DNA of 64,000 nt from NCBI GenBank assembly GCA_964016885.1, contig OZ024743.1:189782001-189846000 (forward strand), read 5' to 3'. The translations under genes and the position numbers were made by a program. Numbering within the stretch: position 1 is the stretch's first letter; each line of letters starts with the position of its first letter. Below are positions 27,095-28,135 of the stretch, piece by piece. The stretch comes from Eledone cirrhosa (taxonomy: Eukaryota). The notes under the pieces are model-generated. The model had not been told where the DNA came from, made no database searches, and worked only from the letters and a program-made list of their open reading frames with translations.

Positions 27095-28135
27095 ACATAC
27101 ATACATACATACATGATGACATGATGGCTGCTCCCTCGCACAAGAGAAAAAAAATATATATATATATAGAGAGAGAGAGAGAGATTACAATAATCCAAAT
27201 TCAGTTTAAATCATTTATTTGCTTACAATTGTTTCCTCCAAACCTCGGTTTGGAGGAAACAATTGTAAGCAAATAAATGATTTAAACTGAACTTTGATTA
27301 TTGTAATCTCTATATAATTGCTCTGTAAAACAACTGATGTTATTACATTGAGCTATTTATCTTACTGGTAATAAGATAGTAATAAATGACTATCTTTCAC
27401 TATTTGGGGTTTGTATAAAAAATATATAACCATTAAAGGTTTTATTATATACATAACCATAAATAGTATCCTTAATACTAATATATATATATACATATAT
27501 ATTAATAACAATAATAATAATAATAACAACATTAATAATAACGACAACAACAACAATAATAATATACATATATATATACACACACTAGCACACACATAAA
27601 CATATCTATACACACACAGACACGACGATAGCAACTAACAGTGCTGTGATCGAATGCGGCTTTTTAGCCCAGCCAATGATCTAAAATGTCTTGCACAGAA
27701 TCGGCAGCCAAAACATTCAACGGGAATAGCCGGCTGTATTTGTGCATGTCACTTGAGCCCTCCTGCTGATTTACATTCTCTACCACATGCTTGGCAAGTA
27801 TGATGAGTAGCATCTCCAACAGCAGCCTGGTAGTCAACCACTGATCTTACTTTATGACTGCGAAGATGACTTTCGAGTCCGGCTTTGCTGAGGCAGAGTC
27901 TCGCACAGACGTTGCATGTCAGCACCATAGGAGGACCCTCGCTGTTTGGAAGTGCAACAGCAATGCCCTTCCTCACATCCCGCTTTACTCTCTCGTATGC
28001 GATTCGAGATGCCTCAAAGGTAACTTTTCCCTCATATACAGTCTTTCTCCATTTATTATGATCAGCAGCAATATTTTCCCATGTATCAGCAGAGATGTTA
28101 GCGTCTTTCAAAGAGGCTTTCAAGGAATCTTGAAT
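27095..28135 (-). mobile_element. 5'-truncated BovB-like RTE copy, interrupted by a PLE palindrome
   Basis: 27500-28135 closely matches 29130-29832 including the microsatellite 3' UTR; terminal gcagccatcat...(ATGT)n at ~27095-27145. Confidence 0.8.
27180..27480. mobile_element. PLE pLTR fragment folded back at the HHR helix II loop
   Basis: 64 bp arms 27180-27243 and 27248-27311 (2 mismatches) around ctcg; 27241-27480 is homologous to the reverse complement of 1676-1920. Confidence 0.85.

Follow-up and report, generated by a model that had tools for sequence, protein, structure and literature searches.

A palindrome turning on hammerhead helix II in Eledone cirrhosa: a recurring scar of a Penelope-like element, likely formed by twin priming

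The palindrome at positions 27180–27480 of the analysed window (a stretch of 64,000 nucleotides of Eledone cirrhosa contig OZ024743.1) is a genuine, recurring scar of a Penelope-like element (PLE). It is probably a very short head-to-head PLE insertion with arms at two fixed end points, likely made by twin priming. The evidence consists of genomic end states, and coordinates such as +232, +68 and −749 count from the centre of loop II. The palindrome and the intact motif with which it was compared include the following features:

3378..3424 (+): intact copy of the minimal type I hammerhead-like motif in the palindrome's family, core with U4C
27150..27179 (no strand): left target flank, (TA)n/(GA)n, not mirrored on the right
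27180..27243 (−): short inverted arm; its outer end is the family's +68 end, the putative no-tail RT start site
27237..27254 (no strand): helix II stem-loop, which is also the head-to-head junction; 7 bp and a closing C-G, loop centre 27245–27246
27248..27480 (+): long sense arm, the 3′ part of the pLTR and a ~165-nt tail; 83% to 1657–1919
27255..27271 (+): hammerhead-like 3′ half with GAAA, palindromic helix III, GUA triplet and helix I 3′ strand

The two arms of 64 bp (27180–27243 and 27248–27311) differ by two mismatches and enclose a CTCG loop (27244–27247), as a sequence-only reading of the window had described; the repeat search of the window placed 65-nt arms here, with 2 nt spacing and 97% complementarity. 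The same reading was right in that the centre of the palindrome is helix II of the 3378–3424 motif, and that the 5′ core half is replaced by a mirror of the GAAA/helix III half. Since the 5′ core half is absent from 27180–27311, the palindrome is no ribozyme. Its fold had a z of −23 in comparison to 200 shuffles, and the cDNA hairpin at its helix II was predicted at −4.9 kcal/mol, making up 85% of the ensemble. The long sense arm stops at the family's +232 end, the putative second RT start site, and both flanks are unmirrored microsatellite.

The family of the palindrome is, judged by its sequence, an endonuclease-containing PLE. A natural tandem copy (L042) has a 4172-bp unit with an 832-aa frame, and L042 and L043 show a 428-bp direct repeat in the 4172-bp unit. 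Tandem marker copies are spaced at 4172–4199 bp, and the family thus has pLTRs made of partial tandems, as endonuclease-containing PLEs do. Also the inverted 5′-truncated copy with a tail at one end, another mark of these elements, was present in all 44 readable pairs described below. The L042 frame presumably holds RT motifs, a Cys linker and then a GIY-YIG-like endonuclease (motifs read by eye), the linker sitting between the RT and the endonuclease. The Pfam search of the PLE frames and the PDB sequence search gave no match. The label Naiad, which implies an endonuclease N-terminal to the RT, was rejected because in L042, as in the window at 21188–23688, the RT comes first and the endonuclease second. 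For Neptune/Nematis, the criteria in the available text of PMC8557442 are a Zn-finger-like linker between RT and endonuclease and placement by an RT tree. In the genome, the 23-nt marker used for the 3′ half of the hammerhead has 4967 copies, and the 31-nt one specific to the youngest subfamily has 2080.

The 3378–3424 motif, which has an inverted twin at ~1885–1931 (−), departs from the core CUGANGA...GAAA...NUH by U4C and by one additional G ahead of GAAA. The G10.1-C11.1 closing pair is missing, as A faces G in that subfamily; in other subfamilies the 3′ closing-pair position is T, C or A. The Rfam scan of the window found no hammerhead family at E ≤ 1, only low-complexity miRNA matches below threshold. 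The motif has the 7–8 bp helix II, palindromic helix III and pLTR location of the minimal PLE hammerheads. The available text of PMC4209133 describes minimal type I hammerheads in PLE pLTRs, also with a short helix I, and notes opposite-strand pairs 100–700 bp apart, but gives the hammerhead no part in junction formation; the present motif differs from those hammerheads by U4C and by the missing G10.1-C11.1 pair. Within the element, no perfect inverted repeat of 8 bp other than helix II has a spacer of at most 12 nt, and helix II also ranks first among the 24-nt self-dimers (−17.9 kcal/mol, the runner-up having −17.8). Pairing of two cDNAs at helix II was predicted to give an 18-bp duplex with two mismatches. 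RT run-off at the predicted cleavage site, +22, was rejected as the cause of truncation, with 0 of 74 mapped arm ends there. Sister PLE families have kept helices I and III, and inserts of 60–105 nt replace the short helix II (L089–L094, L095–L098, L101–L104; window 20762–20904).

The anatomy of the head-to-head insertions was studied in 60 stretches located within the first 148 Mb of C1, a contig of the assembly, including 39 marker pairs, 20 single markers and one tandem neighbour as a reference; the stretches were picked by the hammerhead marker on one contig, and their counts are not population frequencies. A head-to-head pair was present in 50 of the 59 analysed stretches, and the other nine had no partner arm within 5 kb. 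In all 44 pairs with readable outer ends one arm ended at +232 and the other at +68, and no pair had two ends alike. Junctions were mapped in 37 of these pairs, seven divergent pairs being dropped. The arm reaching further upstream was the one without the tail in 19 junctions and the one with it in 11, and seven junctions were symmetric (within 12 nt), while 0.84 symmetric junctions were expected by permutation (p-value 5e-5). In eight of the 37 pairs the tail arm lay entirely 3′ of +68, the two arms then having no common sequence. None of the mapped junctions turned on helix II, and two had one end at −2. Further non-overlapping pairs were seen at L108 and L109, which share an identical junction (+111 to +2) on two contigs, by either recurrence or later duplication.

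A copy made by fold-back cannot extend past the point at which its template cDNA starts. As the furthest-upstream arm is without the tail in half of the junctions and eight pairs share nothing, two cDNAs would thus be needed. Opposite-oriented pieces neither of which could have templated the other, the hallmark of L1-type twin priming, were found in the 19 of the 37 junctions with a longer no-tail arm and in the eight non-overlapping pairs. The inverted arm did not lie wholly inside the first cDNA, as it would after snap-back of a single cDNA, in 19 of the 37, and did so only for short cDNA fold-back pieces at two junctions (L039 and L068), located elsewhere in the element. These two junctions were counted by the fold-back piece, and their main arms also show the longer no-tail arm. 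A variable second primer site, as in L1, was not found: the second start is fixed at +68, which makes this a variant of twin priming and not a member of the L1 type. A non-overlapping joint of opposite strands (~+201 to −19) was present in the raw data of two runs (55 reads in one and 65 in the other, with one start each).

The junctions carry 0–6 nt of microhomology and templated inserts. Microhomology of 1–6 nt was present in 15 of the 18 insert-free junctions vs 45% for random joins, 16 of 34 junctions having inserts or SNP-limited calls. Microhomology together with templated inserts is a signature usually credited to polymerase theta. Templated inserts of 13–40 nt, copied from beside either arm end, were seen in L067, L078, L032 and at 51440–51480 of the window, and one symmetric junction (L064) turns on TATATA. 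The three sister families with 60–105-nt helix II regions make the same two-arm insertions.

Under twin priming, the two ends left by a single cut of a (TA)n target would likely prime one cDNA each. The cDNA with the tail would start at +232 and its partner at +68, probably from a shared RNA, and both would stop at variable places. Their 3′ ends would then be joined by microhomology-mediated end joining, each templating the other, and such mutual templating would make a separate priming of the second strand unnecessary. Being of the same polarity, the two cDNAs could pair only at inverted repeats. A cDNA end in the 5′ strand of helix II would be captured in register and give a mirror; helix II is the longest perfect inverted repeat, which would explain such capture. 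The RNA stem of helix II may also slow the RT slightly, given the accumulation of single arm ends around the loop. Pairing between the two cDNAs, or a start as a brief fold-back on one of them, would both fit and lead to the same product, and the part of the ribozyme in the junction would be passive. Both arms were probably copied from the same template, as is indicated by how little the arms of a locus differ and by the excess of symmetric junctions. In L042 each fixed end is found on the 3′ side of a small AT-rich hairpin (+56..+70 and +214..+232) ending in TA-like bases, and priming there could be by the (TA)n target end.

For endonuclease-containing PLEs in general, the chances seem about even that twin priming is programmed, i.e. 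that an RT dimer extends both ends of the cut, starting at two fixed sites of a single RNA, and that the resulting cDNAs are then linked head to head, producing inverted pLTRs, the one-sided tail and palindromes, with helix II as a pause and annealing cassette.

In the 3.0-Gb genome the exact 28-nt junction of the palindrome had 28 matches and the reversed control none. True mirrors with arms of at least 60 bp were found at 25 of the 28 loci, and the three loci with arms of 13–17 bp were excluded from the mirror counts. The exact junction was spread over several subfamilies and many contigs. Arm divergence per 55 nt was 0.48 within a locus vs 6.9 between loci, and the 16 mirror loci with identical arms represented six distinct arm types. 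The near-identical arms within loci together with these six arm types show that the mirror has been made repeatedly, and each of four closing-pair variants was seen as a mirror. One helix II mirror (L020; G000:C10:50253746-50256773) has perfect arms through all the 1513 bp fetched per side, into the ORF, and represents either the joining of two full-length cDNAs at the upstream pLTR or a fold-back in the assembly. At L112 and L113 adjacent mirror junctions lie 4124 bp and 337 bp apart, L112 resembling a local duplication.

Short junctions, with 0–30 nt between two helix III halves, numbered 91, and their classes were counted by eye among the first 50 listed. These included 24 helix II mirrors of the palindrome's family, about six turns in other registers of its helix II, and seven turns of a sister family at the loopless 6-bp palindrome GCCGGC. 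One family was rejected as a further basal helix II mirror, its actual turn being a 4-bp sub-stem of the long region. Among the first 100 of the 2080 marker rows there were 25 head-to-head pairs, none of them at loop II; extrapolated for the youngest subfamily, this gives about 520 head-to-head pairs vs about 12 mirrors. Helix II is thus a sharp yet minor hotspot, with an estimated share of about 1–2% of insertions, depending on the denominator. The enrichment of breakpoints at loop II expected in the sequence-only reading was found in part: breakpoints are non-uniform and helix II is recurrent and independently regenerated as a turn, but its share is small and the mapped junctions lack it.

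Arms broken between +9 and −52 gave 128 matches, of which 100 were listed and classed by eye. These comprised 20 rows representing 10 mirrors, 55 other ends, 12 internal indels, 12 unreadable rows and one at the marker edge. The 10 mirrors at a single register compare with about one end per base (p-value 6e-6). The non-mirror ends were concentrated from +4 to −2 (17 in 7 nt; scan-corrected p-value 0.01) and rare in the 5′ strand of helix II (2 in 7 nt; p-value 0.02). The scarcity of ends in this strand and the pile-up at the loop suggest that much of the mirror count can be ordinary ends caught in register. A second cluster of ends at −29/−30 (n = 8) shows that the loop is not the sole such place.

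Mirrors were not found at the tail hairpin, which only one cDNA would carry (its stem is weaker, and the product could be lost). Neither were they found at the 10-bp loopless palindrome at −749, with near-equal self-dimer energy, nor at the 6-bp hairpin at −614, sites that few ends reach and at each of which roughly 1–2 would be expected. The lack of mirrors at −749 and −614 leans, weakly, toward the hairpin being needed, and snap-back may add to the helix II junctions, as fold-backs do occur at L039 and L068.

The strongest of the alternatives, still an unlikely one, is a hairpin self-primed on antisense RNA or cDNA, with both arms reaching +232, one of which the endonuclease would trim at +68 during integration. 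Its parts have been proposed for PLEs: in the available text of PMC3846280 (2013), self-priming on an antisense template was inferred from palindromes at inverted PLE junctions, and in that of PMC8557442 the one-sided tail was described as endonuclease resolution. A trimmed hairpin would account for the near-identical arms, the excess of symmetric junctions and either orientation of the loop. In the eight non-overlapping pairs, however, +68 would fall in the single-stranded loop, and the geometry of the two outer ends is that of target priming on opposite strands. Also the RT starts observed in vitro match the tail ends without trimming, according to the available text of PMC11167929 (2024). 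There Poseidon PAc, an anole PLE protein, cut and extended both target strands, two RT start sites bounded the tail, a dimer was predicted and hammerhead cleavage was unnecessary.

The mechanism proposed in the sequence-only reading was that one cDNA self-primes its second strand on helix II, which would give the ribozyme a dedicated role at the DNA level; we consider this highly improbable. It would agree with the exact loop II register of the 24 mirrors among the first 50 short junctions, the stable cDNA hairpin, the unused loopless palindrome at −749, the fold-backs at L039 and L068, and the window locus itself, in which the loop follows the long arm as predicted. cDNA snap-back is also described for R2, where in the available texts of PMC11371274 and PMC11331408 the 3′ end of the cDNA at 5′ junctions primes a short antisense self-copy before joining. 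Against it stand the small share of helix II turns and their absence among the mapped junctions, the pairs without common sequence and the two-arm insertions of the sister families. Among the 25 true mirrors the loop was on the tail arm in 15, on the no-tail arm in nine and on both in one, and among nine further mirrors classed by eye on the tail arm in three and the no-tail arm in six. The loop orientation of the 33 single-tail mirrors (tail 18 vs no-tail 15) hence does not follow the long arm, and in the 15 no-tail cases the copy would have overrun the start of its template. As a general route, self-priming by one cDNA was rejected because the arms start at two fixed sites, the no-tail arm is often the longer and some pairs do not overlap; it could not build most of the inversions. 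Neither did the second role of the ribozyme hold up, given the share of about 1–2% and the turns of sister families at loopless palindromes. That the mechanism was not known to be described applies only to the link with the hammerhead, absent from the available text of PMC3846280, since self-priming at palindromic PLE junctions is present there.

An origin after insertion has slimmer prospects still, whether by deletion in a longer palindrome, cruciform processing, gene conversion or the spread of one founder. Small deletions do occur in helix II, the two neighbouring mirrors at L112 look duplicated, and long perfect palindromes are unstable. The six arm types among 16 loci and the four mirrored closing-pair variants argue against one founder, and the fixed polarity and the non-overlapping arms would be left unexplained. 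The least credible alternative is a fold-back artefact of assembly or long reads, to which one could refer L020, the mirror joint not being listed in four runs compared with a reference copy (two reduced-representation libraries and two contig sets) and the lack of an indexed run with half of the window stretch (the best runs had 0.35 of its words), but against which speak the unmirrored flanks and unequal arms, the fixed ends shared by 28 loci from many contigs and the other opposite-strand joints in raw short reads.

Twin priming, the preferred reading, was reportedly first described for L1 by Ostertag and Kazazian in 2001. In the available text of bioRxiv 10.1101/2024.08.27.596794, both target ends prime on one L1 RNA and microcomplementarity joins the cDNAs, the outcome being a gap or a duplication according to how the downstream cDNA ends, before or beyond the internal start; in part of the insertions the second primer anneals at spurious sites inside the RNA. 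Unlike in L1, both starts are fixed in the palindrome's family, 164 nt apart, and two-armed products form the majority of the sampled loci. The R2 snap-back resembles what was seen here at two of the 37 junctions, but in the available texts it is a low-frequency by-product of one cDNA and cannot add sequence beyond the cDNA start. With Poseidon PAc the family shares two start sites bounding the tail and the use of both strands, observed in vitro there and suggested by the end states in the genome here; the anole protein belongs to a different PLE clade, and the main text of PMC11167929 proposes neither joining of two cDNAs nor strict pairing of tail and no-tail arms.

The PLEs in the available texts of PMC3846280 and PMC8557442 have the same inverted 5′-truncated copy head to head, one-sided tail, junction palindromes and (TA)n targets. 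Differences are the tail, ~165 nt here vs 30–40 there, the arms, shown here to be independent, and the junction class on helix II, which is unlinked there. Among the openly available article texts searched, no paper was found that puts twin priming on PLEs or junctions on helix II. The text terms of bioRxiv 10.64898/2026.07.22.740005 contain no mention of palindrome, helix II or priming.

How PLE integration is finished, and how inverted pLTRs with a one-sided tail originate, was left open in the available texts of the 2013, 2021 and 2024 papers, and PLEs are the retrotransposons closest to telomerase. The results suggest that the wider junction pattern bears on how PLEs make inverted ends. 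The genomic pattern offers a sharp test for the in vitro PLE system: one cDNA per strand and one per start site, joined at inverted repeats. If this is true, PLEs routinely write long DNA palindromes into the genome. Such palindromes are sources of dsRNA and instability. The claim specific to the ribozyme has lesser weight, helix II being one hotspot among several short inverted repeats.

The window includes further PLE insertions and related features:

1657..3467 (no strand): larger head-to-head insertion of the palindrome's family, tail arm left and no-tail arm right
19899..20026 (−): inverted arm belonging to a second PLE family and ending at the apex of that family's long helix II
20762..20904 (+): hammerhead-like motif with a 105-nt helix II, long-rod fold, z −4.57
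21188..23688 (+): PLE coding region in two frames, presumably RT and then Cys linker and GIY-YIG-like endonuclease (motifs read by eye)
51385..51609 (no strand): head-to-head junction of a third family, across the long helix II, with a templated 13-nt repeat
63137..63405 (no strand): asymmetric head-to-head junction in a fourth family, which does not turn on loop II

The insertion at 1657–3467 is the largest inversion of the palindrome's family in the window, turns 650–780 nt upstream of the hammerhead and had gone unmentioned in the sequence-only reading. As the hammerhead is only 68 nt from one of the starts, short palindromes must turn near it, and spotting by eye is therefore biased to the helix II region. 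Three other inverted pieces had been read as turning in or beside helix II. For the one at 19899–20030, called Naiad, the end at the apex of the 105-nt helix II was correct, but the junction is joined to a TA run and is no mirror, its outer end falls 137 nt short of the end of the direct arm, and the element has the RT before the endonuclease and is no Naiad; the RT part of 21188–23688 is 46% identical to the L042 protein. The turn at 51397–51597 was found as a mirror across the long helix II, the 5′ strand of which is, by eye, replaced by a mirror of the 3′ strand. The one at 63140–63402 agreed only in part: one end falls within the 61-nt helix II region and the second lies ~40 nt to the 5′ side of the core, so that the piece does not turn on the loop; the fold of the motif was no better than shuffles.

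Also other repeats were present in the window. Non-LTR retrotransposon frames with RVT_1 were located at 15304–18398 (−), 29324–32116 (−) and 39195–41369 (+), the first having additionally an AP-endonuclease and a PHD finger. A short interspersed repeat with weak tRNA similarity (Rfam 25–27 bits) occurred at 7848–8215, 26784–27011 and 54665–55549, in the last of these as an inverted pair, and additional inverted repeats were found at 54232–54647 (108-nt arms) and 63547–63938 (94-nt arms).
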